The notes under the pieces were generated by a model. It saw only the letters and a program-made list of their open reading frames with translations. It did not search any database and had not been told where the DNA came from. A program made the translations under genes and the position numbers. Below, one piece after another: positions 4,425 to 47,789 of a stretch of DNA of 60,000 bases. This stretch comes from Amphiscolops sp. MND2022 (Eukaryota): positions 18,478,001 to 18,538,000 of the forward strand of contig OZ076409.1 in NCBI GenBank assembly GCA_964187785.1, given 5' to 3'. Numbering within the stretch: position 1 is the first letter of the stretch; every line of letters begins with the position of its first letter.

Positions 4425-5156
4425 TGTAACGGCAAGCTCTGGTACAGCAACATCAACTTCGACATGTTCAGAAAATTTTGTCAAAAATTCGTTCAAATTT
4501 GACGTGGCACTCAAACATGCTCAAGACGAAGTACCTGCCAGAAAAAGCACCCCAAAAAAGCAGAAATCGCCGCTCGCGACGAACAAGCACCGGAGACGAC
4601 TGAAAAGACGTCCCCAACGCATACAGAACACGGTATTGTGTCAATCTCTAGGAGATATCCATTACTACAGTAAAGGAAACCAGTGTTCCAGATGTTCGCC
4701 TGAGTATCCCTGCGGTATCCTGTGTGGCAACTAGCGCTAGCGCTGGGAACCTGAGGTCAATCTTCATCAAATGACTCTGAACTCTTGATTTCTTGTTGTA
4801 TTTTTCGATGTGGTAAATTAATATGCTCGAGAGCTGTTGTTTAACATCTGTTTATCCAATTTGGCGATTTTATCAGATTCTCCAATATTACGGTTCAACC
4901 TTCATCGATTTTCAGCCCAATTTTTAAAGGCTAGTTGAGCAGTGGTCTTGAGTCTTGCAAGATGCCTGTTACTTTTAGCAGTTACAGACTAGGACCAGGC
5001 CAGAGAGCCTCCTACAAGACGGTTCCCCCACCTTGGGACTGGCTCCTTCGGAGGGAAAATGAGCTAGGGCCGCGGAGATCTAAGTCCCAGATTATATTCG
5101 CTGTTCTAGTTCCTCCACTCTACGTTGCGGTTCAAGCGCCAGCGCTTATCGTTACA
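4425..5156 (+). repeat. 5' LTR (732 bp)
   Basis: Starts TGTAACGGC, ends CGTTACA; matches 22536-23267 except for three transitions seen by eye. Confidence 0.97.
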
Positions 5157-5171
5157 TAGAAACTCATTTTT

Positions 5172-5189
5172 TGGCGACCACAGAGGGAT
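5172..5189 (+). promoter_or_regulatory. Primer-binding site, probably tRNA-Arg
   Basis: TGGCGACCACAGAGGGAT begins with TGG (complement of CCA) and resembles the complement of eukaryotic tRNA-Arg 3' ends (...GGTCGCCA); lies 15 nt after the LTR end. Confidence 0.7.
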
Positions 5190-7877
5190 CGTCTTGGGAA
5201 GCTTTCCCTAGCGGTTTTTAAAAGATCTGGCCCCCTGGTGTTCAGCGCCAAGCCCGTTTTCGACTCTGGACAGGAGAGAAGAGCAGAGTTTTACCTCTTT
5301 TTAGTCGTATTACGTCTTACTGGAACTGGGAGAGGCGTTGAACCAGTGAAAATGCGAAGAAAACATGTTTTCAGGTGCGAAAATGGCATTTTTGGGCATT
5401 TTAGAAGGAAATCGCTCTTTATGTGTGATGTGTTGTATACCCATCAGCGGGTACTTTTTTGCAGGTGTAGAGGACCGTAGCACGTGGCTACGGGTGTCTA
5501 ACAGTTTTTTTGAGCTATTTTCAGCCATTTTATGCCATGCAAGAGGGTAACGGATGGATGGTTGACCATACTCCAGCGAGGCGAAGGAGGGGACAAATCT
5601 TGTGTTGCCTACTTCCTATTCCCATTTCTCGTGGAGACGTCCTAGAGGCATGGTTTTTGGTGGACAGCAAGTACAACGACAGACGGTGCTAATGGTCCCA
5701 CCCGCGTATTTCTATCTGGTCTAGAAGTGGAGAAATAACGTGGTGAAGATGCACCCCCTAGGACCAGATGAGTCGCTCAGATGGAGTATGGTTGGCGAAA
5801 ATTTTGAAAATACACCTCTTTCGATGGAGAATCGATGGTGCAGGTCAGTGACGTTCTACCATAAATGTAACGGCACCCTACGAAGTGCTTTTCTGCGAAA
5901 GAGATAGCACTTTGAGAAAAAAACCTCATTTTTGCGTTTTTTTTTGGTGTTTTTCTTGGTTTCGAGCACTAGTGCTCACAGAAGCCAGGAAAGTGTGGTG
6001 GAAAGTTTTGAAAAAGCAGCTGCAAGGCTCGAGAAAGCCGGCACGAGGCACGAAAGGCGAAGTTGAAGCCTTTGATTGTCATAAAAGTGCCAACTTGATG
6101 CCGAAAAATGTGAAAAAAGCGGAAATTTGGCCAAAAAGGCACCCAAAATGTGAACGTACACGAGTGTGGAAGTGTAAAATGACAGTGTACGGCACTATCC
6201 CAAGTGTAGTTGACCCTCCGGATACTAATTGTAATTTTTGTAGCGGACTCAGGCAGCCTGGGGCTGATACAGTGCGAAAAACTTTTGATTTTTGGCATTT
6301 TCGAGCAGAGAAGGTGCATCAACCGAAAACACCCAGAGCGAAGCTTATTCGAAGAGAGCGGGCTCGAGCGCTCTCATTTTCGATTGTAGCAGCAAAAACG
6401 ACGCATTGTGGTGAAAACTGCGTGCGAAAATTCGTTTTCAGCGTCGAGAAAAACTGAAAAACCTTGAATTTTGGCCAGTTTCAGGAGTGCCAGAGTGTAT
6501 CATCAAAACCTCCAGGGCACTCAATGTTTTCGAGACCGGAGAGCCCGCGCGCTCCTATTTTCTGTATTTATAATACAAACGACGCATTGTGGTGAAAACC
6601 GCGTGCAAAAACTCTTATTCAGTGCTGAGAAAAGTGGAAAAACGCACTGAATTTGATCAATTTTCCACTAAACCGGACTGTCTCTGAGCTAGGGTCGGGT
6701 CATCGATTCCTGAACCCTAGCCAAAAAGTGGTTGCATTTTCGTAACCACCACAAAAAACAGCGTTAGTGCCGAAAATTTGGTGGGCGTATCGCTCACCAA
6801 AGTTGAGAAAAACTCTCTGACGTTTCGACTGCAGAGAAGCATAAAAGGACCAAAAAATTCCAAAACTGCTGGACTGACAGTGCCTTATACCTAACGGGCA
6901 CAGCCAATTGAGGGTTTATCCCAGTGCTACGGATAGTGGGGCGACACGTTGGTCCCATTTTGCCTGCCGTATCACTTTCTGAGATGATCCTCTTGATCAA
7001 TTTGTGAAAAAAGTCGTCAAAAACAGTGTTTTTCCGTGTACATCCTACGTAGTGGGTCGAAACCTCAAATAAGCGCTCGCGCTTCAATTCGACCATTTCG
7101 GTGGCATTGTAGGTGCCTACTGGCATAGACTACCAAGTTTGGTGCCGATCTGTGCGATACTTGTTGAGAAAATAGGAAAAACGTGGCACCCAAAAAGGCG
7201 TGCAAAAAGGCAGTTTTTTCCAAATTTTTCCGAGTAACCCGGGCACCTTAGCCGACGGGTGGGGCTATATTGCAGCCCACCATCGTATCCTGTGCTAGTT
7301 TCTACGTTGCTGCAGAGAATTTGAGCTTGCTAGCTCTTTCCAGTGGATCGCAATCTTGAGAAAGACGTGAGAAACAGTGTATTTCGGTACATAGTGGTAC
7401 CGCACGTCTGTACCTAGGTGAAACTGTGTAGAAAGGGCGCAACTCAAAACTGTGCTCATTTTCGTAAACCTACGTGTACCTAAGATCTGCTGGCCAATTT
7501 TGGGCTGGATACGGCGCTTCCCGTGCATACCCGAGCCTTTGGAGAGTTATCGTGCCAATTTTGAAAAACCCGAAAATTTCTTGAAATCCTTCCTGTGGGT
7601 GACTCGAGACCTTTTGCCCCAAACGAAGTTGATTTTCCAGCCCAGTGTGCTTGTGGAAAAACGCTGTGCAAATTTGAACGGCCTACGAGCCCTAGAACGT
7701 GTTCCGAAAAATCTAGAACATTGAATATCACCAAAATTCTTAAGTGCTCACCGGGACGACCAAGGGATCAGCTTTTGAGTGAAGACCCTGGTACGTTCGG
7801 CGACCCAATTTGAGTCTTCCGAGTAATCGTGAGCGGTAACTCGATCGCTATCGATAAACGCGTTGGCCACCGAACCG

Positions 7878-10800
7878 ATGGCGGTGTCCCATACTGGTTC
7901 ACAATCATGGGTCACGATAGAGGGTTCGTGTTTTTCAGACAACATGTCTGACGAAGTCACTATCGAACAACAGCGAAAGGAGGAATTGGCCGCTATGGTT
8001 CGTCCCTCAGAGAACCCCAGTATTTCTGCAAATTCGCGTCGAACTGAGCAGTGGGTCGACGAAACCTGCCGCGACAGAGCTAATGAAGTGGAAGAGGGCT
8101 GGCCTAATTCGAACATGACCGATGAACTGGCGGCTGAGGAAGGGTGCTCGCGCGCACCCCCGGCTGGAGAAAGGCAACTTGGCTCACAAACTGACATGGA
8201 GCAGGACCTCACTCATGTGGGAGGCATGAGTTACGCGCGACAGCGGGGACTCGGGACCACTCGAGGACCTACCCGGGTCTGTGCCTACGGAAAGCACAAG
8301 AAGGTACGACCACCTCTGCTGCAGGTAGGCGAGCCACGCCAAGAGGCATCCCGTGTCAGGAGTATGACAGGTTCATTGGCCTCATCGCAACGGTCCTCAG
8401 TATACAAGGCAGCGTTATTGGATGCCCAAGCCGGAACCCAACGGGCCCTAGCAGGTCTGGCCAGCACTCGTGCTGAGTGCAATGAGCAACACCTGGCTAT
8501 CGTAGAGAACATTAAAATGATGCAGACGACGATGCGTGAAGACCTGCAGGTCAGTGATCAATTGCGCACCGCGCAGAATGTGCAAACTGCTCGAGTGGAC
8601 ACATTGGGTCACCGGATAGGCGAGATGAATGACACGTTGATGTCTCGCGAGCTGCGCGTGGAAACGCAGATCAACGACTTAAGCAATCAGATGCACACGG
8701 TACTCAATGCCATTGAGGTCATGAGGCGTGAGAGGTCACTCCCGCGGCAGTCCAGTGCAAGTGGAGGCGTGCGGAGCGGAGGTACAGTCCGTGTCTCGGA
8801 GCCGACGTGCCCGAGCCAGGTAGTGAAGTCGGAACTGCCGAGCGCGCTAAAGCCTATCACTTCCAGGCCGGCGGTGCCTGCGCCCCGGAAAGAGGAAGGA
8901 GTAGCCGGAAATTTGGTGATGGCCATGCCTGAAGCAGAGCGCAAGCCTGCACGAGTGCAGATGAGGGGGCATCACGACTCAGCAGAATCATCGATGCCTT
9001 CTGCAACCCAGAGTACCACTCGAGATCAAGGCGTGGACCCGATGTCGACCATCTATCTTGATTCCTCGGTCGAAGTCGACCTATCTAACACCAAAGCAAC
9101 CCTAGGCTCTCAAACCGAGGGAGCGACGTTTGCAACTGCCCCTATTTTGATGTCAGGACCAGATTCTTTATACTGGACCGCGGACTTGTCAGCCGAACAT
9201 GGACTGCCCTCGGGCACTCCCTGTGCTAGCAGCACTCGTAAAAAGGACGAAATCGCTGACCTGTCGATACAAGCTACTCTTGGTAGTCATGACAGGACAC
9301 GCGAAGAGGAGGCCAAGGCCGATGAAGGAGAAGCCATATCCCCCGAGCAGCTGAGATTCACGGCCGCCATATCGAAGGCGATGTCCAAAGAGTTAGCGCC
9401 CTTACTCGCCGGCAGAGACTTGGCTCAGGCGAGGCCCAATGTATATCGCGGGTCCAAAGAAGGATCCATTGATGGGTGGATCCTTATCATGCAGAGATAC
9501 CTGAAGAGAACACAAGCCAAGGTTTCAGCCGAGGACCAGGCTTGGAGCATCATCGGTCACCTCGAAGGTGAAGCCCGCAACTACATTATCAACAAAGCGG
9601 AATCCGAACGTGACACCCCCGAAAAGGTGTTCGAATTGTTATCCAGCCGCTTTGGCGCTGGAGGAAACCGTATGCAAGTGCGACAAGCTTTCCAGAGCCG
9701 CATTCAACAAGAGAAAGAAGACTGGATGCAGTATTTAGACGCTCTAGAGGGTCTTCGAAGTCAAGGATTCCCACAAGAGGCAATCACCACCAAGCGCTAT
9801 GAAATCCTCCAGCGCTTCATGGAAGGAGTACGAGACCCAGCGCTGAGGCGGGAACTGGCCATAGTGTATGCCTCGGAAGTCTTCCTGACCGAGCCACCCA
9901 CGGTGGAATCCCTCCGCTTCACTACCCGCCAATTGCAACGCAACCGTCCAAAACCTAACCAATTCCCTCAACCCTATGACCCTAGACTAGCAATGAGGTC
10001 TCGACCTCATCCCTTCGCGCCACTACCCCCCAACAAAATGATGTTACCACAAGGAGTAATGCCTCCCCCACCTGCGAGTAATGCCCCCAATCAAGCAGCA
10101 GTGCAGCCTGCAGCACGCCTACCCGTTGGCGCGTGCTATAATTGCGGACAAGCTGGGCATTTTGCCCGGGACTGTCCTGCCCGTGATCAAGCTCGCAAAC
10201 CAGTGGCAGCTCCTGAACCAGAAGGCGTGAAAGTCACTGCCGAAGACGTAACTGATGGCGTGTTGGAGAGCTATCCAAGCATTCATCAGTGTGCGCACTG
10301 TGGAGTCTATGACCATGTGGATGTCCCTTGTGGTGAGCATTCCCAAGCTGCGAGGCCTAATGATGAATTGGCCTACAATCGATGGGCTGAAGTGGAATCC
10401 GCTGGTGTGGCCGCTCACACGGTACCCCTGGAAGATGATCGCGTATTAATGCTACACCCAGCGGAGCCCCCAGCGTTTCACCCCCCACTGATAGTTACAT
10501 GTGGGACAAAGCAGATTCAGACGTGCTTGGAGCCCACAACATTCGATCCACAAGGGAGGACGTTGATCTCGATTCATCTTATGCTGGCAGCCGAGCAAGT
10601 GCGCAGACCAACGTTAACTTTGGCAAAACTCTGGGTTGAGCTATCTGTCCTCTATAAACGGATGGAATTGCCCCGCCCAAAACAGTGGCACGTCCCCGGA
10701 GAGTCAGAGACCCTGACTACATACTCGCCAGTACCAGTCTGTGCAACGATGGACGGCGTGGACGTGAAATTCGAGGGCTGTGTGGTGGTAGATGTATTCC

Positions 10801-12989
10801 CACCCGGCTTATGCTTGGGACCTCAAGAGCTGAAATGCTATAATATCAACCACCAAGAACCCACCGGGGAAGCGCGAATAGACGAGCGTGCGTCGCTCGT
10901 TGTCTCTTTTGTGGTGCCACATGCAGCACCTATCCCACTGCGAGGCCTGGTGGACACTGGTTCTGGAGTATCAATACTGACCTTCTCCGCCTTCAACCGG
11001 GTAGCTGCGCGGACCGGAGCGGTCCTGAAACCCTATCAAATTGATTTGTACGCTGCCAATGGGAAGACAATAAAGACTTTCGGACTGGCTGAGCCGATAC
11101 GCTTCCAGTTGGGAGGGTATGAACTCGAAACCAATTTTGTCGTGGTAGATGACACAATGGGCGTGGAGGACTTTCTGTTGGGTCGAAACTTCCTTCGTTC
11201 CTACCAAGTCCTGGTAGATCTGACCTCCATGAAGATAGTGGTGCGAGCACCAGTGAAGCCCGTCTGGCATCATGCACACACCCAGGTAGGTGATGCTTCA
11301 CTAACTACCCCCATTGCCCTGGACAGCGACTTAGTCCTACAGCCTTTCGAGCGTACAATGGCAAAAGCCAAACTTATCACCAACGCGCTTGAACCATTAA
11401 TCTTTCAGACCGTGGCGCTTAACGCCTCGTTGTCTGATCCCTCATTGCAAAATACCATCTTTTTAGAGGACAGCGTGGCCACTGTCAGTGAGACAGGAAC
11501 ACTGTATGTGAGCCTGGTAAACCTCACCAGCAACCAGCAGCGTGTACGATGTGGTGCCCACCTAGGCACGGTAGTGCCTGTGTCTCTAGTATACCAGGCG
11601 GTGCCCCAAAAGCTGGATGCTACAGCGGAAACTGACCACAAAACTGAAGCCGACAACAGTCGAGCAAATTTTGTTTATAAAGTGTACAGTGAAATGAATC
11701 TATCTACTGCTTCTGAGTTAACCTCTTCATCTGAATTTGAGTTTTTGTCTTCTACGGATCCAAGTGAAGCGGGGCTTTCGGAGCGCGAGATTCGCAAGCG
11801 CGCCGATCCCGACCTATTGGCCCCGATCCCTGGGCCCGATTCTCAATTGCAAGAAGTCAAGAAACTCTGGGGCGCTAGCGCCTGCGAGTCCTTAGACAAC
11901 ATTCTTAACGAGTTTGATGACCTGTTCATGAAACGCAAAGCGGTTATTGGCCGCTGTACCATTGCTAAACACACCATAGAGGTAGAGCCTGAGGCTGTAC
12001 CGCACCGTGAAGGTGCTCGAAGAATGTCCCCCGAAAAGGCTGAACGAGCCAACCAGGAGGTTCGGAGCTTATTAGCCTTAGGGATGATACAACCTTCACT
12101 GTCCCCATGGGCAAGCGGTATCGTAATGGTAAAAAAGAAAAGCGGGGAGTTGCGCTTTTGCTGTGACTTCCGACCGCTGAATGAGGTAACCATTAAGGAT
12201 GCCTATCCTTTGCCCCGTATCGATGAAAGCCTGGCACGACTGGGAAATGCAAAGATCTACACCAGCATAGACCTTGCCTGGGCTTTCTGGAAAATTCCCT
12301 TGCGAAAGGCGGACCGCCACAAAACAGTCTTTGCCTGTGAGTTGGGACTCTTTGAATGGCGAAGAATGCCATTTGGCTTGTGCAATGCATCAGCCACTTT
12401 CCAGCGAGCAATAGCGCGAGCGCTGCAAAAAATAGTCATTCGCAAAGGCAGTATGGTCATGGCATACATCGATGACATAGTTATCGCAACTGAGACTGTG
12501 GAAGATCTCATGGCGCGGTTGCGCGAGGTTTTTGAATGCCTCCGCGAAGCTGGCTTCAAGATGCGCGTAGCCAAATGCGACTTCATGAAACCAGAAATCA
12601 AATATCTGGGACGCGTGGTCTCAGCAGAAGGTGTCAAACCGGACCCGAAAGCTGTTGCCAAACTGCGCGATTGGGACATCCCCCGCAACAAAACTGAAAT
12701 GCAAAGCTTCCTGGGATTCGCTAATTATTATCGAGAATTCATCCCGTGGCATGCCAAGCTGGTGGCCCCCCTCCACGCCGTTACGGGACTGAATGCCACA
12801 TTCGCATGGGGTCCTGACCAACAAAAAGCCTTCAACGAAGGAGAGTTCTCGCGCAGCCTAATTCCGAAGGAGAGTTCGTGCTGGACACCGATGCCAGCGC
12901 TGTTGCCATTTCCGGTATCCTACACCAATGGCAAGGAGCTCCCGGAGAACGACGCCTACGACCAATCATATACGGCAGCAAGAAACTGA
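7878..12989 (+). CDS. gag-pol: Gag-protease-reverse transcriptase part of the polyprotein (frameshifted at about 12840)
   Basis: Coiled coil; capsid-like region (HLEGEARNY...FQSRIQQEKE); two CX2CX4HX4C knuckles (10134-10175, 10290-10331); protease LVDTGS (D at 10953); RT motifs LPRID, SIDLAWAF, MPFGLCNA and YIDD (12465). First ATG at 7878; the frame is open from 7863. Confidence 0.95.
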   Translation: MAVSHTGSQSWVTIEGSCFSDNMSDEVTIEQQRKEELAAMVRPSENPSISANSRRTEQWVDETCRDRANEVEEGWPNSNMTDELAAEEGCSRAPPAGERQLGSQTDMEQDLTHVGGMSYARQRGLGTTRGPTRVCAYGKHKKVRPPLLQVGEPRQEASRVRSMTGSLASSQRSSVYKAALLDAQAGTQRALAGLASTRAECNEQHLAIVENIKMMQTTMREDLQVSDQLRTAQNVQTARVDTLGHRIGEMNDTLMSRELRVETQINDLSNQMHTVLNAIEVMRRERSLPRQSSASGGVRSGGTVRVSEPTCPSQVVKSELPSALKPITSRPAVPAPRKEEGVAGNLVMAMPEAERKPARVQMRGHHDSAESSMPSATQSTTRDQGVDPMSTIYLDSSVEVDLSNTKATLGSQTEGATFATAPILMSGPDSLYWTADLSAEHGLPSGTPCASSTRKKDEIADLSIQATLGSHDRTREEEAKADEGEAISPEQLRFTAAISKAMSKELAPLLAGRDLAQARPNVYRGSKEGSIDGWILIMQRYLKRTQAKVSAEDQAWSIIGHLEGEARNYIINKAESERDTPEKVFELLSSRFGAGGNRMQVRQAFQSRIQQEKEDWMQYLDALEGLRSQGFPQEAITTKRYEILQRFMEGVRDPALRRELAIVYASEVFLTEPPTVESLRFTTRQLQRNRPKPNQFPQPYDPRLAMRSRPHPFAPLPPNKMMLPQGVMPPPPASNAPNQAAVQPAARLPVGACYNCGQAGHFARDCPARDQARKPVAAPEPEGVKVTAEDVTDGVLESYPSIHQCAHCGVYDHVDVPCGEHSQAARPNDELAYNRWAEVESAGVAAHTVPLEDDRVLMLHPAEPPAFHPPLIVTCGTKQIQTCLEPTTFDPQGRTLISIHLMLAAEQVRRPTLTLAKLWVELSVLYKRMELPRPKQWHVPGESETLTTYSPVPVCATMDGVDVKFEGCVVVDVFPPGLCLGPQELKCYNINHQEPTGEARIDERASLVVSFVVPHAAPIPLRGLVDTGSGVSILTFSAFNRVAARTGAVLKPYQIDLYAANGKTIKTFGLAEPIRFQLGGYELETNFVVVDDTMGVEDFLLGRNFLRSYQVLVDLTSMKIVVRAPVKPVWHHAHTQVGDASLTTPIALDSDLVLQPFERTMAKAKLITNALEPLIFQTVALNASLSDPSLQNTIFLEDSVATVSETGTLYVSLVNLTSNQQRVRCGAHLGTVVPVSLVYQAVPQKLDATAETDHKTEADNSRANFVYKVYSEMNLSTASELTSSSEFEFLSSTDPSEAGLSEREIRKRADPDLLAPIPGPDSQLQEVKKLWGASACESLDNILNEFDDLFMKRKAVIGRCTIAKHTIEVEPEAVPHREGARRMSPEKAERANQEVRSLLALGMIQPSLSPWASGIVMVKKKSGELRFCCDFRPLNEVTIKDAYPLPRIDESLARLGNAKIYTSIDLAWAFWKIPLRKADRHKTVFACELGLFEWRRMPFGLCNASATFQRAIARALQKIVIRKGSMVMAYIDDIVIATETVEDLMARLREVFECLREAGFKMRVAKCDFMKPEIKYLGRVVSAEGVKPDPKAVAKLRDWDIPRNKTEMQSFLGFANYYREFIPWHAKLVAPLHAVTGLNATFAWGPDQQKAFNEGEFSRSLIPKESSCWTPMPALLPFPVSYTNGKELPENDAYDQSYTAARN

Positions 12990-15900
12990 CCACCACCCAA
13001 GCCAAATATGGGGCACCCAAGCTGGAGATGTTTGCTGCCTACTACTTTATCCTCAAGTACCACAGCTACCTTTGTCCCCGCAAGTTCACCCTGAGAGTCG
13101 ACAACCAAGCCCTATTCTGGTTGAAAACCTACTCCACGGACCAAGCATTGCTTGGACGTTGGATTATGACACTGGACAGGTATCACTTTCGCGTGGAACA
13201 TAGACCACGAACGCAGCACCGCAATGCCGATGGCTTGAGCAAACGAACCAATGAATATCGATGCCGAGAACAGCAGCTTGCGCAGCTGCCAGCTAGTGGA
13301 GAGCGTTGGAACTTCCTCTCTGCCGAGGAATTCGATAACCTCCCCATAGCCCCATGGTTCGACCTGCAAGGTCGAATCATTCCAAATCACCCTGACCTAC
13401 CACCGCATCTGCAGAACTTGGAGCCTAAGGCTCCTGACCAGGCACTCCGTGTGCTTCGCCGTGTGCAACGTGCGAACAAACGAAAACGACAGGCGGAGGC
13501 GTTAGCCGCGCCTTTACCGCCTCAGCCTCCACCCGTGTTGCAAAAGCACGGAGACTTCTACCCAGACTATCCTGAAGACTGGATAGATGTCACCACTGAG
13601 GCCAGCGAGGATTACCTACTACCAACACATGCAGTAAATGTCCCCTCGCGCACCATCTATTCTGTGACGGAAACGAGTAACGCTATGCTACAGAATTCTC
13701 CTGGTGGCGTGCGCGAGTCGATCATGGCTCTCAAGGATATCGACACCGAGCTCCATGAACACACACATACCGTGCATGATATCAAGGACTTGGTTTTAGC
13801 CCAAAACCGCGATCTCCACGTGCTTGCACTGAAAAAGCTCGTGCAGTGTGAATCCCTAGATAGCGACGTGTTTCCCGAGAACGTGCGTGAGTTCGCACGT
13901 AATTACTTCCGCCAGAAAAGGGATCTCTTGTTCATAAACAAGAATCAGGTCCTTTGCGTGCAGTACTCCCCCACCCAACGCCCACTGCACGAACGTCCGT
14001 GCATGATCATAATGCCTCAATTGTACCAGCACGAGATTCTGTTCCGTGCACACGACGCAATGGGACACCAAGGCATCTCAAAGGTGGTAGCTCGAATTCA
14101 AGAGCGCCACACTTGGCCCGGCATAAGGCGCAGTGTCGGTCGGTACATCGGCCAATGCCTCACCTGCCAACAAGTACGTGACAAGCCTGGCGACGTACGA
14201 TTCCAACTGAAAAACATTCAGAGTGGCTACTTCAACGAGTTGGTCCAATATGACCACTTAAAAATTTGCCCCTCTGATGACAACAACACCGGCATTTTGG
14301 TCATCATTGACCATTTCTCTAAATTTGCAGAGGCAGTCCCTTGTAGTCATCATGACTATGACGCAGTGACTACCTCACGATTGCTGCTGCAGAAATGGTT
14401 TGCCCGCCACGGCACCCCCACTCGCATGCAATCCGACAATGCCCCCAACCTTACTGCTGAAGTCTCTAATGAGTTTCTAAAGGCAGCTCACGTCACTAAA
14501 GTGACCTCCACTGCCGGACATCCACGAACTCAAGGCTTGGTGGAACGACGAAACCGTACCCTCTTAACCTTGTTGCGAGTCTTTTGCTCACGTCGCATGC
14601 GCGACTGGGACCAGTGCTTAGATGAAGTGATCGGTGCCTATAATTCCACCAGGCACGCCACTACAGGCTTCTCGCCCTACATGTTAACAAGGGGTGTTGA
14701 GAAAGCAATTCCCCTCACCTTTTTATACCCTGAATTTGCAGCCAAGTCCTTCGATACGCATGAAGCATACGTGGATCATGTGTTGGCTCGCCAACAAGAA
14801 ATTCACGACTTGGTTCGGCGCAACACGCACCAAGCCCAATTGCGCCAAAAACTGAAATATGATCGTGCTATCCGCACACGAGCTTACCAGCCGGGAGAGC
14901 TCGTCTGGGTTTTTTGCTGCTACGTGCCGCAAAAAGGCTCTCCAAAATTGTTGCGCGCCTGGCGTGGCCCGCACAAAATAGTGCAAGTTTTTCAAGAAGG
15001 ACGAGTCTATGTATTGGACACAGGCCAAAAGGTTCATTTTGAGCGCCTGAAACCTCATAATAGTGGGCCTCTTGAGCTCGCCACCGCGCAAGCGGACAGC
15101 GGCGAAATCGTGGTACTCATGGACCCTGTTCCTGAACGTTCTATTGAAGCAGTTGATGATGACAAGTCCCAGCCTTCATATAAAACTGAACAACTACTTT
15201 CAGAAGCATCTGACGTATCCTTGCCTTCGCGCAAGCAACATTGGATGGATACCCGTCTGCGCACAAAGTTACGTGCTGGAGGTTCCCGCATGCACTACCA
15301 GCAATTTGACTACTCAACTTCGGGCACTGACGACGAGTTGTCCGAAGTCATGCTACCGGTACTTCCTGATCCCGCTGATGCCGATCGCAGGGAGCCCGAA
15401 CCCCAACTCCCTTCAGACCAGTCAATATCACCTACCCATCACCTGCCTCAACTATTCTCCGACCATGAGCGCGCGCGCTCTCCGTCACCACGAATATCCT
15501 CTCCCGAAAGACAGCCCTCTTTACTGGGCACATCGGCCCCACTACTGACAAATCCATCACTGACAAGCTTCCTCGACAACTATCCCATTTGGCCGGCCGC
15601 CCCTTCCCTTCCTCTAAAATCTGCCACTGAGGACGACGACGCTCAGTCCAATGTCCCTACTCTTCCCACAACATTGCCCGGAGCGGGGACCGCTCCTTCT
15701 TTTAAAAGGGGGAGGGGGAGACCACCCAAAACGCGAAAAAGGCTGGTCAGAGCGAAGGCAAGAACGAGGAAGAAAGAAACTACAACAACACTGCCGTCGG
15801 AAACAGCAATACCGACCGAAGCTTCCGAGGTCCCCCGATATCAACTGAGAAGCAGACGGCAGCCACGCTATAAGTGCGGGACCTGTGGGCTGCGAGACTG

Positions 15901-16879
15901 TGTTTGCTTGCTAGCCGTCAATGAGAACCGGAGGGTTCCCACTGGAGCCCGGGGAATCCCTCCAGAGCGGGGAGAAAATCTAGTACATCGCCTTACGGTA
16001 AGAGCTGAAAAGACTTATTCCTCCCTGGAACGACACGGAGACCATCCCGTGGACACTATCCTGGAGAAGTTATCATTACCTGGAGTAGCGAAGGCCCCAT
16101 GTCCTCGCTTCAAGGAGTGGACTAGCGATGGAAAAGGGTTAGAGTTCACCCTCGCAACGGTGATGCCCCCAGTACCAAGCAACATTGCTTTTGGCCCCTT
16201 CAACTTCGAGCGGGAGCCTGTGCAAATGGTCCGATGCATCACCGCTGATCTTCTCTGTGACAAATACGGAATTCACGTGGACCCGGGCGGAGTATACAGC
16301 CCAGCGCCGCACTGGTGGTTGCTGGTCACTGCTCCACGAGTGGAGACAATAGTGGAACCGTTGCACCTGCTGTCCTGTTTGGAAGGTCTGAGGACCCTCA
16401 CTACCGCGGATCTGATACTTTGCTTTCACATCATAGACTGGTATCGTGGCAAAGTAAAATTTGCGTGGTGGTTGGAGCTGATCATCACTTGTTTCCCCAA
16501 TTATCCTCGCATTAAATTGCTGGATGAGTTGACTCATACCTTCGAGATTCCGCTTCCTCCAAAAGCCGTTTTGAGCACCCTAGACACATGGGTTAGGGCG
16601 ACCAGTGATAACCGAGCGATGCCTCGCTCGGTATGGCAAGACCTGGCTGCAATCCAGGGGCGTACGCCCCGCGTATGCTTGCCTGCCGACAATGGGCCGG
16701 GGAGAGAGATTATCTACCCGCGAATCCTGTATCCAGCCCCAACAGAACACCTCTCATATGATGTGACTGATTTTCTTCAAGTAGAAGGTGACATAGTGTT
16801 GGCGTGTCCCGCTGACCTAGAGACAAACTCAGCTGCTACGAGAATGCGGCAAGGAGAATGTGTTCTCCTTACGTCCTAA
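12848..16879 (+). CDS. pol: RNase H - integrase - extended C-terminal tail of Pol (continues the upstream ORF after a frameshift)
   Basis: LAQPNSEGEFVLDTDAS, KLEM, LRVDNQAL and NADGLS (RNase H); H-x4-H...CLTC zinc finger; QYD...SDN...VER catalytic triad; WRGPH (GPY/F); AT-hook KRGRGRPPK at 15704-15730. Confidence 0.95.
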   Translation, partial: LAQPNSEGEFVLDTDASAVAISGILHQWQGAPGERRLRPIIYGSKKLTTTQAKYGAPKLEMFAAYYFILKYHSYLCPRKFTLRVDNQALFWLKTYSTDQALLGRWIMTLDRYHFRVEHRPRTQHRNADGLSKRTNEYRCREQQLAQLPASGERWNFLSAEEFDNLPIAPWFDLQGRIIPNHPDLPPHLQNLEPKAPDQALRVLRRVQRANKRKRQAEALAAPLPPQPPPVLQKHGDFYPDYPEDWIDVTTEASEDYLLPTHAVNVPSRTIYSVTETSNAMLQNSPGGVRESIMALKDIDTELHEHTHTVHDIKDLVLAQNRDLHVLALKKLVQCESLDSDVFPENVREFARNYFRQKRDLLFINKNQVLCVQYSPTQRPLHERPCMIIMPQLYQHEILFRAHDAMGHQGISKVVARIQERHTWPGIRRSVGRYIGQCLTCQQVRDKPGDVRFQLKNIQSGYFNELVQYDHLKICPSDDNNTGILVIIDHFSKFAEAVPCSHHDYDAVTTSRLLLQKWFARHGTPTRMQSDNAPNLTAEVSNEFLKAAHVTKVTSTAGHPRTQGLVERRNRTLLTLLRVFCSRRMRDWDQCLDEVIGAYNSTRHATTGFSPYMLTRGVEKAIPLTFLYPEFAAKSFDTHEAYVDHVLARQQEIHDLVRRNTHQAQLRQKLKYDRAIRTRAYQPGELVWVFCCYVPQKGSPKLLRAWRGPHKIVQVFQEGRVYVLDTGQKVHFERLKPHNSGPLELATAQADSGEIVVLMDPVPERSIEAVDDDKSQPSYKTEQLLSEASDVSLPSRKQHWMDTRLRTKLRAGGSRMHYQQFDYSTSGTDDELSEVMLPVLPDPADADRREPEPQLPSDQSISPTHHLPQLFSDHERARSPSPRISSPERQPSLLGTSAPLLTNPSLTSFLDNYPIWPAAPSLPLKSATEDDDAQSNVPTLPTTLPGAGTAPSFKRGRGRPPKTRKRLVRAKARTRKKETTTTLPSETAIPTEASEVPRYQLRSRRQPRYKCGTCGLRDCVCLLAVNENRRVPTGARGIPPERGENLVHRLTVRAEKTYSSLERHGDHPVDTILEKLSLPGVAKAPCPRFKEWTSDGKGLEFTLATVMPPVPSNIAFGPFNFEREPVQMVRCITADLLCDKYGIHVDPGGVYSPAPHWWLLVTAPRVETIVEPLHLLSCLEGLRTLTTADLILCFHIIDWYRGKVKFAWWLELIITCFPNYPRIKLLDELTHTFEIPLPPKAVLSTLDTWVRATSDNRAMPRSVWQDLAAIQGRTPRVCLPADNGPGREIIYPRILYPAPTEHLSYDVTDFLQVEGDIVLACPADLETNSAATRMRQGECVLLTS

Positions 16880-17195
16880 GGTGGGGGAGATTCTCACCAT
16901 TCCTCCCGATGTCAACCCAAACCCCAATCAGAGTATTCACTTGCTAATAATCAGAGCAAACCAGCGTGCTCCGCTGCTCGCAGACGACTACCTACGTTGT
17001 ATGACGCACTTGATACAGCGTTTGATGGAGAAGGGATCCACGAGGGTCCACCTACCTATACTGGATCCAGAGCGACCCGCCCTCTCACTAGTAAACTTAT
17101 ATCATACCCTAACGAATTTGCTGGAGGGTACTGGTATTCACGTGGTGCTACATAACCGCGTGTACGTGTCCATTCTGAACATAGGGCTAGAGTAG
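16836..17195 (+). CDS. Frameshifted C-terminal end of Pol (second half of the second macrodomain-like unit)
   Basis: The alternative frame reads LRECGKENVFSLRPKVGEIL...HLPILD...GTGIHVVLH and joins TNSAA of the upstream frame to complete a TARG1-like pattern; stop TAG at 17193-17195. Confidence 0.7.
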   Translation, partial: LRECGKENVFSLRPKVGEILTIPPDVNPNPNQSIHLLIIRANQRAPLLADDYLRCMTHLIQRLMEKGSTRVHLPILDPERPALSLVNLYHTLTNLLEGTGIHVVLHNRVYVSILNIGLE

Positions 17196-17472
17196 CCCAC
17201 CCAAAACATTTTTGTTGCCCCCTTATTCAATTTGCCCACCCGATAATCGTCATGCCTGGGAAGAAGTCTTAAACTATCCCATGAAATATATATATTGTAA
17301 CGTAGCGTTTGATAACTTCTATCTTTGTGTTCTAATTAGTTAGTTGAACTACAATTTAAACTTGTTGCGGTTCCCCTATGGAACCATCTTTGCTGCTGAG
17401 TGATGAGCCTTAAGCTCTCCCTATAATGCGCTTGGCAAGCCTAACGGTAATCCTTTTTAGACCTATGATACT

Positions 17473-20400
17473 ATGGCTTATTACCCCAACAACACGGTAC
17501 CTATTGCCACGACGGGACCTCACGCCAATAGGACCCAAGAATTGCCTGCGCGAGCGCAGGGGACTAACCAAGTCCAATACGTTGAAGAGAGATTGAGGAA
17601 CGGCCTCTCACCGTTAGCGGTAGCGGGCGTGGCCGCCCTACTTACCCAACTAGACTCAATGCAGACGCTGCCTGGTGTATCCGTGTCTCTTGTGACGGAA
17701 GTAGCCGGTTACCGTCGCACCCTAACCTGCCAAAACAATGCGTGGGATGGCCACGATCTGACGCACCAGTTCCTAGATGAACGGTCCACCACAATGCTCG
17801 GACCCAGCCAAGGTACGAGATTCGAGCAAGAAGCCTCACTGTGTATGGTGCCTGCCAGCGTAGCAACAATGCCTCCTCCTCCGATGGTCGCATTGCCCCC
17901 ACCGGCGCCAAATTCAGTACCAATGACGCCAACTTATTCCGGTTCGCCTGCCTTTGGGACCTCATATCGAGCGCCGCATATGGTATTACAAACCACTATT
18001 AATGCACCAGTCTCTGATCGGGAGCCCTCGGGGTCCCGGTTGCCACCCATACCCAATCCAGAGCTAATGGGAAGGAGTACCAGCGAACAGGCCGTAATTG
18101 TGGCTTTGCAAGCAGTGGCGAATTATCCCAACTCAACCGATTTTGTCCGTGCTGTGGAGCAGAGAATCCCTGGATTAGCCACGTATCTGCAAGCTGCTGC
18201 TCAGCCCGCGGGCTGTGACCCTCCTGCCCCCTTAGTTGAAACAGCCTCTATGGATATGGAAATTGTCGCTGGACCGAGTAACAGCGTAAGCGCTGCCTCT
18301 GGCATACGAGAAGAAGCGGGAAGAAAGCGGCTGACTGAGGAGACCGCCTCAGTTACCCCAGCTGGCTCGGTGACCGAGAGCCCGACTAGTCGTCCCCCTC
18401 CTGACAAACGCGCTGTTGTACCTCGACCCCAGCTGAAAAGTGTAGTCATCCCTAGGCCTCTATATCGAGTGGGTCATCTAGGCCGAAGCGCTCCTCAAAT
18501 GTCTTTGGCAGACGCGATCGAACAATATGGAGATCCGGATGCAGGCTCGGAAGTGAGCTCTGTGCCCTCGGGCACCAATCCAACAGCCATGTCCCTGGAG
18601 ATACCTGAGACGGTGGAAGAAGCCCATCCTCCAGCCTTCCTCCCTCCATCTGACGACGTATCCGGCTCAGTAGTCACCAGTGATAGCAAACGCATTTGGA
18701 TGGCGGCCGAGCATCTCTATCCCAGTCAATGTGCTATCAAGAAAAGGACTCCTCCAACTGAAACGGAGCAAAAGGAGATCAACCGGACCACGATACCGGC
18801 GCAAGTCACACGCTCGCTCCGCCCCCGTGACGCAGACATGTCGGAGCAGGCTTGGGAACAGCGTGCTCGAGAGCAGCTGCCTATGACAACCAACGACTAC
18901 ATGGCACCCTTGCAACACAATATCACTGAGCAGTTTCCCGCACGGTATGTGTTGCGAGAGGGTGAGACGTGGGAGGCGAATGCCCGTTACGCCCGCAACC
19001 TGAGATCCTTGAAACCCTTATTGAAAGCAGCTCTGCAGCGTGCGCGCTACTGCATCGCAGTTGAGTCCACTTGCCGAAGTGACCTTCCTATTGATAATTT
19101 AATGCCTGATGTGCTGGTGCTAACTATGCCCCTGTCTCGCTTCGCCGAGGTCGCTGAGATGGTCGGAGCCATATACGATCCAAACTAAAGAGGATCACAA
19201 AAGGAACCACACCCACAGCGAGTGATCTTCGCCAATCTCCTGGATCACATGGCTTGCGAAGGATTGCTGCATGACCTGGCCGCGATAATGTCCAATGTCC
19301 GACGACTGGAAGACATTGCTGCCCTGGTGAACGAGGTGGTTGGTGCAATGGAACGTGCCGCAGGGATCCTTCGGGGTCGTCTGGGAGCGCTCGCGCTCTT
19401 TGTATCCCCACCGGGATTCATGTATTGGCCACGCAGTCTGCAGCAGTTCGTCTACATTCTGCTGGAGGTGTGCAAGGCGTGCAGAGTGGAATTCGCCATC
19501 TGTGCACCGAACTTGCGCGTGGATCGAGAGGACCTGCGCCCGGATACCATATCATATCCTGCCTTCTTTGCCGTTGTATCTAGAGCGCTGGTGGCTATAG
19601 AACGCTCGGGAAACGCCCAGCTCACCATTGACGATGCCATCCGCTATGACTATGGAATGCGGATGGGCAGACTGGCCTTTGACCTTGACGGCAACCGCAC
19701 CGCCCGAGAATCCAATGTAACTGAGCGAGAGGCTGTTCGCCGGTACAATTGGCTAGTGCGAAAGGATAAAGAAATCCCAGTGCGCGCAGAATTAGCCGAT
19801 CTGACGAAGCAAATTGGTGCATGGCCTGCGGCGCGCACCGTCGAAAGAACGATTCCTCAGATCCGCTTCGCCTCGGGAATCGAGCCCGTGAAGCTGCCTG
19901 TAGGGCTGCGATGTATCATAGCAATAGAAGCAACAAATCTGAAAGCAGAAGTCGACGCCGCAGCTACAACTTATGCTCATTGGTACCAGACTAGGTTTAC
20001 CACTAGAGCCCTGGCAGAAGTAGCTCGTTAGCTCGATTGTCCATTGGAAGCCTTCTGTACCAGTCTCGGTCTAGGATGGAACCTAGAGGTGCTAACTTCT
20101 GAGTTCTCGCTGACCTCTACGCAAACGGACAAATTGTTAGAAACAATTGGGGAGGCAACCGTCGGAGAAATACTAGCGCTCGCGCTAGCGATGGGCCCAA
20201 CCAAGTTCGTAGCCGGACCACTGGCTTTGTCAGTCGACATGGTAATTGCCTGCGACCTAACCATGTTCTACAGCTACTTGGTCCTGGCACAAGGACAACT
20301 ACGCAGTCTGACCCGTTGGGGACACTTGATGACTTCCAAAGACCAGCAAGACTATTCCGCACAACTGGAGCGCATGCGTGCGTCAATCCAGCACTGGCTA

Positions 20401-21780
20401 TACTCCACCCTGGTGTTCGCCTCCGGCCTATTCGTGGGCGTAGACCAATCCCAACCACTCCATAATCCCGACCAGCATATTTCCCGGGAAAAGGCAGGAT
20501 TCCCCATGCCGCAGCAGATTGCAGACCTCACCCTGGCAGAAGTAGAAGACTTTGTGGCGGCAATGGCTCCTGTTTTGGCCCCTATCTTTGGCGCAGTGGG
20601 CGTGTGCCGGTACCCAACAAAACCATTGGCAACGGCCGTCCAAGTGCACATGGTCTCTTTCAATACCTACCTGCGAGGCCGTCCTTCACTGGCGTACCCA
20701 AGGGTGATACATGCAGTGCTGAGTGGTGAGGTGCCGCATGGGTACACGACCATAAAATCCGAAAGAGAGTTGGAGGAGAACTTGATGGGCTTGCTGCGCG
20801 CGCGCACCAGGAAAGCATGTCCTCTACCCCGGGAGCATGGACCTGTGAACTGGTATTCCGCACCTCTCAGTTTGGAAGGGGTTCCCTTTAGATTCCCCTG
20901 GAGTCAAGAGTTCGTGAGAAAGGTGATTCGCGCCAGCACTAGTGCTGGTCCACCCGTGGATCCTCTATACTGCTTCAAATGCATCGCCTTCCCAAATCGT
21001 TACTGGAAGGAGCCGTTAGGTTGGCCCAGGGCAAAACCCGTTGGACGCGCCCCAGAAGTGTTCAACCGCCAAATCCAACACTTGGAGTCAGCCCAGATCC
21101 CAGGATGGATTGAAGGCGCTGCTCAGATTAGGCAGAGAAATCTCCAATCCCGCGTCATTCCATTCCCCAGGAAGTCGGCATGGAAGCCTACGGGAAAGAT
21201 GACCATGTCTGGAGATATGTCCATCGTCCAGCATGATGAGATAAATTCCGTGTTGGGCTCAACAGAACGAGCGCGATGGGAAGAATACTGTCTAGAGTTG
21301 GAGATTGCAAGCTTCCCTAAATGGAAGAGAGCTTGCGAGCTCTGGAGCCAATCTGGATGGATCTCACGCCGTGTAGCACTAGCGGTCGAGAGTAGAGCAG
21401 AGATGGCGAGACAACAGGCGTTCGCGCCTACCATGCTCGCAGCCACGATGGCGATGTCCTTGGATCGGCCCATCTCTCAACCGATCACCATTAATCTTCC
21501 AACCCATGACTTGGAGCCAGACCCAGTTGGCCCGTCTTCGTCGCGAACGAGCCCTGAGTCCTCACAGCAGCAATCCGGAGAGCACACTGCCGAATTGACT
21601 CCCAATGCAGCACTAGTGCAGCCTATTGCCGAGTTGTCGCTCCCCGAAAGTCCGTCGGACTCTGAAACAGTTACAACCGGAGTCTCTCCCCGACGTCGAG
21701 CGTCAGTGTCGACCGACAACCCAGAACAGAACTCAGATGATGCCACTAAAGAGCGGACCCGACGCAGTTCAGCTCAATAA
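17473..21780 (+). pseudogene. ORF3 of the retrotransposon (~1,435 codons, env position, two premature stops); SGNH-hydrolase-like central domain
   Basis: ORFs 17473-19188, 19222-20031 and 20044-21780 share one frame and are separated only by single stops (TAA 19186, TAG 20029). Composition is similar to pol. Pro/Ser-rich N- and C-termini; no signal peptide seen. Confidence 0.85.
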
Positions 21781-22526
21781 ACCCAGCCGTTAATGGGAGC
21801 GTTCGCGCTCCCTATACCCTCCTAAACTGCCAACAAACAGTGCCTTAAAACTTCTCATCCAGAACGGTGCCAGAATACAAAGTGCAATTTTTGTTCTTAG
21901 TTATGGTTGTATGGTTAGTGTACCATTAGTGTTGCACTGGGTGTACGGCCAATAGAGTACGCCTGCCCCAGTGGCTTGAGTGACCAAGCAAAAAAAAAAG
22001 AAAACTATTGTTCAAAAAACTATCATTTTTGTTGTGCACCGTTCGCGGTGTTTTTGAGTTGTCACAATCAAAAGAAGTCTTACCCCTCTTGATTGCGTTT
22101 CTATCTAGTCTAGTGTCCTTCATCAATCTGGTTGTTTACCGTAGGAGCCCCCCAAGCTCTAAAATGTTTTTAATCGCCTGAATGAGATGAAGACTTGTAA
22201 TCTCAAATGGTAAGGAAAAGAAATCTTAACTGACTTCGCTCGCAAAAAAGGTTTTTACACAAGTTGACTGCCCAAACGAGTTTTAAACCGGCTGAAAACT
22301 GTAGCTCTCGAGCTGGTGCTAAAACCTAGTTCATGTTTTGTACGAATAGCTAGGCAGTAAGTTCTTTTTTGTGTGAAAAAAACTGCAAAGTCGACCAAAA
22401 TTGTTGCCGAAAAACAAGGACTCGTCCTTGTTCTCCGACGTGTGGATGATGATTCCCAGCAGTCACTGTGATGCAGTTCCCAGACGATCCAGACGCCGCT
22501 TGCCAGGGACGACAAGCCAGTAGCCT

Positions 22527-22535: not shown

Positions 22536-23267
22536 TGTAACGGCAAGCTCTGGTACAGCAACATCAACTTCGACATGTTCAGAAAATTTTGTCAAAAATT
22601 CGTTCAAATTTGACGTGGCACTCAAACATGCTCAAGACGAAGTACTTGCCAGAAAAAGCACCCCAAAAAAGCAGAAATCGCCGCTCACGACGAACAAGCA
22701 CCGGAGACGACTGAAAAGACGTCCCCAACGCATACAGAACACGGTATTGTGTCAATCTCTAGGAGATATCCATTACTACAGTAAAGGAAACCAGTGTTCC
22801 AGATGTTCGCCTGAGTATCCCTGCGGTATCCTGTGTGGCAACTAGCGCTAGCGCTGGGAACCTGAGGTCAATCTTCATCAAATGACTCTGAACTCTTGAT
22901 TTCTTGTTGTATTTTTCGATGTGGTAAATTAATATGCTCGAGAGCTGTTGTTTAACATCTGTTTATCCAATTTGGCGATTTTATCAGATTCTCCAATATT
23001 ACGGTTCAACCTTCATCGATTTTCAGCCCAATTTTTAAAGGCTAGTTGAGCAGTGGTCTTGAGTCTTGCAAGATGCCTGTTACTTTTAGCAGTTACAGAC
23101 TAGGACCAGGCCAGAGAGCCTCCTACAAGACGGTTCCCCCACCTTGGGACTGGCTCCTTCGGAGGGAAAATGAGCTAGGGCCGCGGAGATCTAGGTCCCA
23201 GATTATATTCGCTGTTCTAGTTCCTCCACTCTACGTTGCGGTTCAAGCGCCAGCGCTTATCGTTACA
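22536..23267 (+). repeat. 3' LTR (732 bp)
   Basis: Direct repeat of 4425-5156 with TG...CA ends. Confidence 0.97.
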
Positions 23268-24049
23268 TACTGTCAACAATGATCCAACATATTGGCTCAA
23301 GCCCAGACGTTAATCTGACTTGGAACAGATTAAGATGAACTTAATCACATAATTTTGTTTTGGTTGGATAATGATAATAAGATGCTCGAGGTAGTAAGAG
23401 CCCCGCATTGACAGCACTTTTGAGAAGTCCTCTTCTTACTGCGAGGGTTCGGATCTTATCTATCAGGAAAATGAATAGAGGCCTTTCCCCACCAAAATTT
23501 GAAAGTTTCATTTTCTTGAACGTATGCATAATACAATATGGCAATTAGTAGAATATTAAAGTAACAAAACGTCCAAGCAGGACGGAAAAGGAGCATAATC
23601 AGCTCTACGAGTTTCTGCCCGGGACATTAGAGAACCAAATTCAGACCAACTGAAACGTATTCGTTTATTATTCACAGTCACTAATTTCTACACGAAAAAA
23701 TCATCAATTAATCTTTAGTTAGTGTTATAGATCCAGCAGTTTCTCACGAACAGCGACCAACTTTTTTATTGGAAGAATAATGCAAAAAGGTCACTACTAT
23801 CTGTTATATAAAGCCTATTTAGGTTTTTCAGGTATGTTTTGATTTGCCCCTGTGACAGGGTTTCGATACCAACAGGTATTAGGTTCAATAACAGCAACCA
23901 ATTATATCCTCTGATTAGTGTATATTCAACCGATTTTGATTTACATTTTGTTCGGCTATAGGGTTTCGGCAAGACCCCCTTTTTTCGATCCTCTCGTTTT
24001 TTGATGTTTCGTTTCAGCAACGAGTTTTAAAAATTTCGTGGCTCCATTA

Positions 24050-26560
24050 GCTCTCAGGTGATTAAAGATCTCTCGGAATACATCCACAATGAACTTTTCA
24101 TAAACTGTATTCAAATCGGTTTGCCACAGAAGATGTTGTATACTGTCATACTTTTTTCGAATAAAGTGGCTCTAATAAATCGGCTTTGTGCCATATAATT
24201 TTTTTTCAAGGTTTGTTCTCGCTGCGCTCCATTAAATCAAAAGGCCCTAGCAAATTACACTCCTAGCATACACGTTGTAGATCGACATTAAACATTATAT
24301 TTGATAAACATCCCGAACTCTATAGATCAGGCCAAAAAATTTATCGTGTTTTTTCACTACGTGACTTGTGTGGTCTCTGAATGTTAACTTCGTAGTCAAT
24401 GTACACACCCAAACACTTACAGCATGTGTTTCGTGAAATTACTTCGTTATTATGAACAGTTAGCGTATTTTGGTAGTTGCTACCAAAAGACATAGTCTGA
24501 CAATTTGTGGTGTTGATATGATAGACAATTCGTTATAACTGAACCAATCACAAATTTTTATCTAAGCCACTTCGCATGGTACATTTCCCTTTTCCAGATT
24601 TTAAAATGGATGTGTCATCTGCGAAAAGTGCCATTTTATTATCATATTGAAAGGTCTGGGGAAAATCATTGATGAATACCAGGAACAAAAAGGGACCGAG
24701 ATTTGCCCTTGGGGAACTCCCGTAACAATTTCGGCAAAATCACCCCGTTTTCTTTTCACAAATACATACTGTGATCTGCTTGAACGATAGTCAACCGTTA
24801 TATTATATACAGGGCCTCTGAATCCATAATTGCTCAATTTTGCTAACAGTATTTTATAATCTAACGAGTCAAAAAGTTTCTGTAGATCAATGAAACAGGC
24901 TCTTCCATTTAGTTTTTTTATCAATTTCATCTTTCATGAAGTCAGTTATTTCGGCAAATGCATGAGCGAATGAATATTTTGTTCTGAAACCATACATCGC
25001 TGGGGTAAAGAGATTGTTTTTGATAAAAAAACTTAATCATTTGCTTGTACAGAAGTTTCTCGAAAATTTCACAAAGGGAACTCAGATGATTTATAGGACG
25101 GTAGGTACATGGTAGACTTTCGTCACCCTTTTTGAATAAAGGTAACACCTTTGTAATTTTCAGACATTCAAGAAAGAACTGTTTTTCAATGCAGTTATTA
25201 AAACTTCCCACCAAATCTTTTTCAATTTTTGTTGAACAACTTTTTAAAATTTCGTTACTAATGCAATCGTGACCACTGCTTTTTTTGTTTTTAAAACTCA
25301 CAACTATTTTAGAAACTTCCAATTCATTCGTGTAGGTCAAGTGCATTGAATTCTCAAATTAGTCATCTTCATATTTGTGTTGAGCAGAAGGAATAGACGA
25401 CGCCAACTTTGTTCCAATGGCTGTGAATAATTGGTTGATTTTCTCCAGGTCAGGAAGGTTCACAGCAGTTTAATCATTCCTTCTGTAACTTTTCAAGTTT
25501 CGATAAATCGTTTTTACGCTTGGATTTTCTCCCAGTTTATCAAAATTGCTTTGGCGTTTGGCATTTTTTTGTTGTCACCATGTTCCTTTGGTTTTTGTAA
25601 ATACTTCTGTTTTTCTTGGTTAGACATTTTGTCCCATTCTGAAACAATTTGTTTCTTTTAGTGATTTCGTTCTTCAATTTGTTGTTAAACCAGTCATTCT
25701 ACATTTGTTTCACTGTTGATACTTTTACCGGTGCGAATTTATCTACACAAAGCATAAAAGTCTCTGCTATCTTTTCAAGGTCTTTTTGTTTTGATAGTTC
25801 AATTTTTTTTAGTGTTTGATCTAGGAGAAATAAAAAATTCAATGCGTTCCCCCCATCAATTTTGCGTAGGTCCCGCGACAGTTGTTTAGACTCTCTATTC
25901 TTAGATTCGTTCACGAAAACACCAGGTATTGCTCCTAAGACTGTGTAATGATCACTGATTGTTGTTTTGATAGTTTCAGTATTAATTCGATAACTTGTTA
26001 CATTGTGATTGAGGTAGGTTGCGGATGTTGGTGTTACTCTAGTAGGTTCCAAATCAAGTGCTGAAAGTAGTTTCTCCTAATCCGATTTGTCTTTTGATTC
26101 TTTAATTGTGTCAATGTTGAAGTCACCGCATAAAATAGTGTCATTTTTCAATCACCGTAAAAACTCTAGTAATTATTCGAACTCTTGCAAAAAACTAGGG
26201 CTTTTTTGGCTGTGTGGTCTGTATATAACGCAAAAATATCTAATTGTTTTTGTATCAAAGTTTGTATTATCAGACATTCAATTTTACTTTGAAATTCAAT
26301 AACTTTGTATTTAATATCCTCCTGGACGTAAAATGCAACATCTCCACGTTCCTGACCTGAGGTTCTTGGCTTCGATTCGATTGATTGATATTCTTCCAAG
26401 GTATAGTTGTTTTCAAGGTCGTCTTTCTCTATTAACCACGTTTCCGTTAGCGCTATTATTTCTGGTGTGTTTCCGTAGTTTTCTAGTTCAATATTTAGTT
26501 CATCACGATGGCATCGGAGCGATTGAATAATTTGTGCATATTACAAAAGGCATTTTTCCA
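24050..26560 (-). pseudogene. Decayed non-LTR (CR1/L2-like) retrotransposon ORF2: APE endonuclease + RT
   Basis: Fragments RGDVAFYV, EPTRVTPTSAT, SDHY (EN); KKSSGHD, PLFKKGD...YRPI, FIDLQK, TGVPQG, LFADDT (RT); multiple frameshifts. Confidence 0.9.
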
Positions 26561-33971: not shown

Positions 33972-34699
33972 TATATCCATCAGAGTCCCGAGTTCATACC
34001 CCAAAGGTAGATCAGAGATTTCGTTGTCTGTCAGAGCTGGGCCCAGAAGTAATAGAGACTTCGTTGTCGTGAGACAAACATAGCCCCATGCCAAGAGATT
34101 TAAAAAACTTATGTCATTGAAACTGTTCATTTGATTCGTATATCTTTGTATTTTGTATCCAAAACGGAATTTTACAATCCAAATCACTTTACACAACGCA
34201 ATAACTACCTGCAGAACAGAATTCATTTGGAAAATTGAAATTGGTAATTTCCAGCGAAATCAATTTAAATGCGAAAATGCCCCAAACGTTACTATAACGT
34301 ATACGAATTACCAGCAATAACATTATAGCAACAGAATTTATCAAATCCTGTACCAACCTAGGTGATTACATACCAAACTTCATCGGCGAAAACGAAACCA
34401 ATGTCTCAAACGACCCCTTCATAGTTCACTTACAAAATACGAGTCAAATGAATAAAAGACCTTGTAAAACTATTCTTTTTCAGTAAACGGAACTACCGTT
34501 GTGGATGCTACGATTTTTGAGCAGCGATAAGTTCTATATGCTTGATTCCAGCTCGGAGGAGTCCGACATTAGTTTTCTCACTAGCAGATGTTTTGAACGA
34601 AGCGGAGGTTCAAGCGATCCATCAAGTTTTAGTTTTCAGGCATCTCATATTCTGGGGTCAGGTCTAAATCAGAGATTTCTTAGTCTAGGTCAGGTCTGC

Positions 34700-47603: not shown

Positions 47604-47789
47604 ATATATATATATGCAAAAAAACATCCGATAAATTTTGCATTTGGGCAAACCGAACCCGATATTGATAACATCGACGTTCAACGAATCTACATATATG
47701 TAGATTCGTTGAACGTCGATGTTATCAATATCGGGTTCGGTTTGCCCAAATGCAAAATTTATCGGATGTTTTTTTGCATATATATATAT
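47604..47789. repeat. Perfect spacer-less palindrome (186 bp)
   Basis: 93-bp arms are exact reverse complements around TACATA|TATGTA (centre 47696/47697); (AT)n at both outer ends. Confidence 0.95.

Follow-up and report, generated by a model that had tools for sequence, protein, structure and literature searches.

Esterase-like domains of the SGNH fold have been captured by long interspersed nuclear elements (LINEs) and by elements of the Penelope-like, Ngaro and gypsy kinds. The long terminal repeat (LTR) retrotransposons called Vesta, from bdelloid rotifers, carry a third open reading frame (ORF3) encoding a GDSL/SGNH protein whose catalytic residues are intact; Penelope-like Athena-L elements harbour GDSL derivatives that lack them (PMC5408684). 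The esterase of the ZfL2-1 ORF1 protein (ORF1p) binds liposomes even with a mutated active site (PMC3905857). Here we describe ORF3 of an 18,843-bp LTR element in Amphiscolops sp. MND2022, within a 60,000-nt stretch of contig OZ076409.1 (positions 18,478,001 to 18,538,000; hereafter the window). An earlier note on this DNA took LINE ORF1 proteins as the precedent, which they are, although Vesta ORF3 is a nearer one. The esterase ORF3 idea is thus already in print (PMC5408684) and the extra gene itself is known; what is new is a 1,435-residue pseudo-esterase ORF3 in which the catalytic His is replaced by Arg and the second half has no assigned fold.

ORF3 comprises three consecutive stop-to-stop pieces on the + strand, 17461-19188, 19189-20031 and 20032-21780 (575, 280 and 582 residues), forming a single frame:

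17473..21780, + strand: ORF3, with ATG at 17473, 1,435 codons, internal stops at 19186 (TAA) and 20029 (TAG), and its end at 21778

The earlier note's reading of these pieces as one frame of about 1,435 codons with two stops is confirmed by sister proteins, which are unbroken. Its derivation of both stops from Gln by C>T changes finds no support in the sister proteins. A homologue search (22 proteins), cluster look-ups and a profile search (the best 150 of 640 matches, E 0.001) together yielded 232 relatives. Twelve of the 232 are unbroken (1,426-1,521 aa) and fall into lineages A (1,435 aa), B and D, with identities to the window of up to 97.8% for A, 74% for B and 34% for D; the nearest natural protein, P0060, is 97.8% identical and has no internal stop. 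The remaining 220, all below 1,400 aa, fit decayed or partly called copies, as expected. More distant lineages are 21-49% alike over the central domain, and the tree, built on 16 rows, is unsure in its deep forks. Neutral change would produce ~0.052 stops per missense change, or ~22 stops over the A-B distance and ~80 over A-D. Broken down by codon position, identity between the window and a distant relative, L001, is 0.45, 0.58 and 0.33 (254 codons; protein-guided alignment). Judged from sequence, these comparisons establish ORF3 as a single gene, long conserved under selection. L001 itself (1-816) is a single open frame filling an 816-bp contig filed under a Bacteroidota metagenome assembly, and is probably host DNA binned along with the bacterium.

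The central domain of ORF3 is predicted to have the SGNH fold; the model shows five parallel strands between helices, the flavodoxin-like architecture of the superfamily. The domain and its blocks, placed by motif register, are as follows:

18967..19611, + strand: predicted SGNH-fold pseudo-esterase domain
19060-19071, + strand: block I
19126-19143, + strand: block II
19228-19245, + strand: block III
19516-19545, + strand: block V
19537-19539, + strand: Arg at the SGNH His position (Arg689)

All five SGNH motifs quoted in the earlier note are present in the translation, and its diagnosis of a degenerate domain that has lost His agrees with the predicted fold, with Arg in 9/9 lineages and with the block table of PMC10792757, which the motif register matches. 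It overlooked that the Arg replacing His is invariant, that the oxyanion Gly is lost as well, and that the motif register finds neither the oxyanion Asn nor the acid at its usual position. In the counts that follow, rows take in near-identical copies and lineages are independent. Block I, given as YCIAVEST, was rightly said to keep Ser; its Glu-Ser is unique to this copy, the family having Asp-Ser (Asp and Ser each in 69/73 rows and 7/7 lineages). Block II keeps its Pro, and by motif register the oxyanion Gly survives in just 3/82 rows and 1/8 lineages. Block III retains Asp (85/86), with a hydrophobic residue at the preceding oxyanion position and an invariant Asn (84/86) at the Gly position; this shifted Asn could still act as an oxyanion residue. 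Block V has Arg in 82/90 rows and 9/9 lineages, followed by Pro, with His in 1/90 and a variable acid position. The core has no invariant His (best 7/9 lineages), a finding that speaks against another part of the chain supplying one. The domain is thus a predicted member of the SGNH fold but, by its residues, not one of the active hydrolases: the oxyanion Gly and the His are lost, with Arg in place of the latter; the residue pattern makes loss of hydrolase activity likely.

Around this domain lie the following features:

17441..17460, + strand: candidate 3' splice site made up of CTAAC, a run of pyrimidines and AG, its end 12 nt upstream of the ORF3 ATG
17473..18672, + strand: N-terminal ~400 residues, mostly low-complexity (identity by region)
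17563-17802 and 18073-18192, + strand: conserved islands in the N-terminal part (identity by region)
18322-18330 and 18394-18411, + strand: two basic motifs in the N-terminal part, present in lineages A, B and D and absent in E
19612..19752, + strand: conserved helical stretch that follows the SGNH domain; two Asp and one Gly in it are invariant in 9/9 lineages (predicted local distance difference test, pLDDT, ~85)
19870..20424, + strand: all-helical domain, confidently folded (pLDDT 81-96 over model residues 321-490)
20425..21402, + strand: conserved C-terminal region of ~325 residues, pLDDT mostly <60, no confident fold
20551..20607, + strand: conserved apolar 19-mer, a candidate membrane-inserting helix, bordered by Glu on one side and Arg-Tyr-Pro on the other, both invariant

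The SGNH domain is followed by ~720 residues, not the ~500 first supposed. The earlier note recognised nothing in them; they do hold a confidently folded helical domain, for which no structural match is listed, though the fold searches barely tested this part. The C-terminal region is 82-84% identical to lineage B and 19-22% to lineage E, and the apolar 19-mer has a hydropathy of 1.74-2.44 in 7/7 ORF3 proteins checked. The splice site is suggestive in position only.

The reading we prefer, at somewhat less than an even chance, is that ORF3 acts as an accessory protein, expressed on its own, with a pocket that holds an anionic lipid group and leaves it uncut. It would be an accessory gene of a Ty3/gypsy-type element family, likely translated from its own, presumably spliced, RNA. 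The SGNH pocket, probably no longer catalytic, would likely hold the head group of a lipid or a comparable anion, and together with the apolar helix would anchor the element's particles or RNA on membranes inside the cell. A phosphate or carboxylate ligand is proposed because the Ser hydroxyl and the invariant Arg suit one, and a membrane role because the ZfL2-1 esterase, by analogy, binds liposomes without its active site. The reading is based on the conservation of Ser, Asn, Asp and Arg, on the apolar segment and on that analogy. The lipid or membrane binding suggested in the earlier note, and its idea that ORF3 stands in for Env, likewise stay at the level of proposals. More boldly, and improbably in our estimate, ORF3 might be a new class of envelope-free membrane machine, in which a pseudo-esterase with a Ser/Arg pocket for a phospholipid head group, the helical domain and an internal membrane helix transport particles through membranes or from cell to cell; alternatively, Ser/Arg/Asp might form a novel SGNH catalytic set. 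Such a machine would have been kept across lineages 25% alike.

Several observations weigh against the accessory lipid-binding reading. Foldseek returned no match at E 0.001; root-mean-square deviations are 3-4 A; a profile comparison with nine bacterial SGNH proteins gave a probability of 1.3%; and the block register is a comparison of motifs by eye with the table in PMC10792757, made without residue-level superposition. The domain is near neutral (Lys+Arg 19-26 vs Asp+Glu 18-22 in 8 proteins), whereas the ZfL2-1 face is basic. The apolar segment contains Pro and Gly, has a pLDDT of 41-56 and may be a buried helix, and the basic motifs of the N-terminal half suggest nuclear import. The window contains 4 matches to the splice motif where 3.2 are expected, so that the motif by itself is no rarer than chance, and for the distant ORF3 lineages no DNA connects the gene with a gypsy pol.

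A rival reading is an Oskar-like scaffold: the dead SGNH domain would have RNA or a host protein as its partner, and ORF3, aided by its disordered N-terminal half, would act in the nucleus or germ granules, for example against silencing. We consider this unlikely, if far from negligible. The Oskar OSK domain has lost Ser and most active-site contacts, but Asp-Ser, Asn, Asp and Arg all persist in the ORF3 family, a sign that, unlike in OSK, a small-molecule pocket has been retained; the nucleophile Ser, replaced in OSK, is retained in ORF3. The ORF3 domain is also not strongly basic, lineage E lacks the basic motifs, and Pfam found no LOTUS domain in ORF3. Another rival is an active enzyme of other chemistry, with Ser532 as nucleophile, Arg689 holding a substrate phosphate and an invariant Asp as base, much as cytosolic phospholipase A2 uses a Ser-Asp dyad. 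Ser is indeed kept in 7/7 lineages and Asp721 and Asp726 in 9/9, and both chimeric and rearranged triads occur among SGNH proteins (PMC10792757). We nevertheless hold this doubtful: the oxyanion Gly is mostly gone, the oxyanion Asn position is hydrophobic by motif register, the core lacks an invariant His, and Asp721 and Asp726 lie on the helix past the domain, where they look like capping or salt-bridge residues.

An Env substitute, that is, a membrane protein carrying particles from cell to cell, would fit the env-like position, the candidate splice acceptor and the conserved apolar segment, and Drosophila MDG1-group elements transmit without an envelope (10.1101/2025.03.14.642691). The chance of it is small, since the protein known to take the place of Env is FAST-like and short, vs 1,435 residues here, and the hallmarks of Env are missing. 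A hydropathy scan of P0060, the closest sister, found no signal peptide or obvious C-terminal anchor, as the earlier note had it (the best 19-mer scores -0.4 within the N-terminal 48 residues and 0.9 within the C-terminal 118); there is one internal apolar 19-mer, at 20551-20607. A hydrophobic N-terminal extension is borne by the lineage D protein P0050 and lacking in its sister P0047. No Cys column is common to all lineages, no internal furin site was found (the sole R-x-K/R-R is at the C-terminus and is absent in lineage D), and the viral and PDB fold matches include no known fusogen fold, the C-terminal half being poorly modelled and barely tested. The earlier view that ORF3 is not a classical Env therefore stands. 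That ORF3 has no current function, as captured sequence in neutral decay or three separate ORFs, would suit the two stops and lost block I Asp of this copy and the 220/232 family proteins below 1,400 aa. Sequence relationships contradict it, and its probability is next to nil, given three lineages with unbroken frames down to 34% identity, residues invariant across nine lineages and the codon-position pattern.

The element enclosing ORF3 has the following parts:

4425..5156, + strand: 5' LTR, 732 bp, TG...CA ends, differing from the 3' LTR at 3 of 732 columns
5157..7832, + strand: leader, 2.7 kb, with a 101-nt internal repeat at 6362 and 6543
5172..5189, + strand: likely primer-binding site, beginning TGG 15 nt past the 5' LTR
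7833..17195, + strand: gag-pol with PNMA-like gag, CCHC motif, protease (PR), reverse transcriptase (RT), RNase H (RH), integrase (IN) and a long tail (Pfam)
22536..23267, + strand: 3' LTR, with a short purine-rich run upstream

Two direct LTRs with TG...CA ends and gag followed by pol in the order PR-RT-RH-IN are Ty3/gypsy (Metaviridae-type) traits; the assignment as Ty3/gypsy-type is based on these. The best named relatives of the RT are unclassified frog and fish proteins (40-44%), which by themselves make an animal host likely. The likely primer-binding site may resemble a tRNA-Arg 3' end. A target duplication of 4-6 bp was not found in the flanks 4418-4424 and 23268-23274, which have just 3 bases in common. 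Two frame changes, one near 12830 and one near 16840, disrupt gag-pol, whose stop lies at 17193; its relatives are single ORFs of 2,175-2,998 aa that align across both breaks. With these breaks and the ORF3 stops, this copy is defective in both pol and ORF3. Its LTRs are 99.6% identical, yet it has two stops and two frame breaks, with 31/1,435 differences from the nearest ORF3 protein; it may have inserted already defective, or some breaks may be assembly errors. The last unit of the pol tail past the integrase (16001-17195) is kept in relatives at 24-43%. By eye this tail looks like two degenerate macrodomain-type units, for which sequence searches of Pfam and the PDB gave no confirmation. 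Another branch-point/pyrimidine/AG motif lies in the leader at 5498-5524 (+), a TATATA run at 17287 in the spacer between pol and ORF3, and an AATAAA at 21776-21781 overlapping the ORF3 stop codon.

Elsewhere the window contains tandem arrays at 38166-41881 (period 1,708 bp, 3 copies, 98-99%) and 53592-54750 (period 171-173 bp), and perfect inverted repeats at 47604-47789 (arms 93 bp) and 52064-52243 (arms 83 bp). Two related ORF remnants lie on the - strand at 34680-35225 and 56719-57357, their DNA 75-80% alike; fragments at 24601-26540 (-) near them resemble a decayed LINE.

That the fold and pocket were long kept while the catalytic His became Arg suggests that the element selects binding, not hydrolysis. 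ORF3 would thus be a natural, catalytically dead case on which the membrane-targeting idea could be tested, and ~600 of its conserved residues have no assigned fold. A His-to-Arg SGNH form in an LTR element was not found in the published literature searched, with Repbase and supplements outside that scope. The alpha subunits of PAF acetylhydrolase Ib (PDB 1bwp, 1wab), at 12% identity, tie with bacterial GDSL proteins and show no specific kinship. Amphibian Ngaro-like elements likewise have an extra SGNH ORF of unproven function downstream of their enzymes, but they are tyrosine-recombinase elements, and ordinary profiles recognise their SGNH domain (10.1101/2021.08.05.455354). Like ORF3, OSK has an SGNH fold without the catalytic triad, attached to unrelated domains and disordered sequence; OSK differs in that it lost Ser and binds RNA, whereas the ORF3 family still has Asp-Ser and has acquired an invariant Arg (PMC10792757, PMC7250577). 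With the ZfL2-1 ORF1p esterase and those of other non-LTR elements, ORF3 shares a retroelement-borne SGNH fold and a block II Pro preceding the Gly position, but the ZfL2-1 protein is active, with a full triad and a basic membrane face, is much smaller and is the ORF1 of a non-LTR element (PMC3905857). As in Vesta, a non-env ORF3 with an SGNH fold follows pol in an LTR element, and a membrane or auxiliary role has been proposed. In contrast to Vesta, whose amplified ORFs of 1.3 kb keep their catalytic residues intact, the ORF3 described here has no sequence-level likeness to SGNH profiles, extends over 4.3 kb, is multi-domain and carries Arg in place of the catalytic His (PMC5408684).
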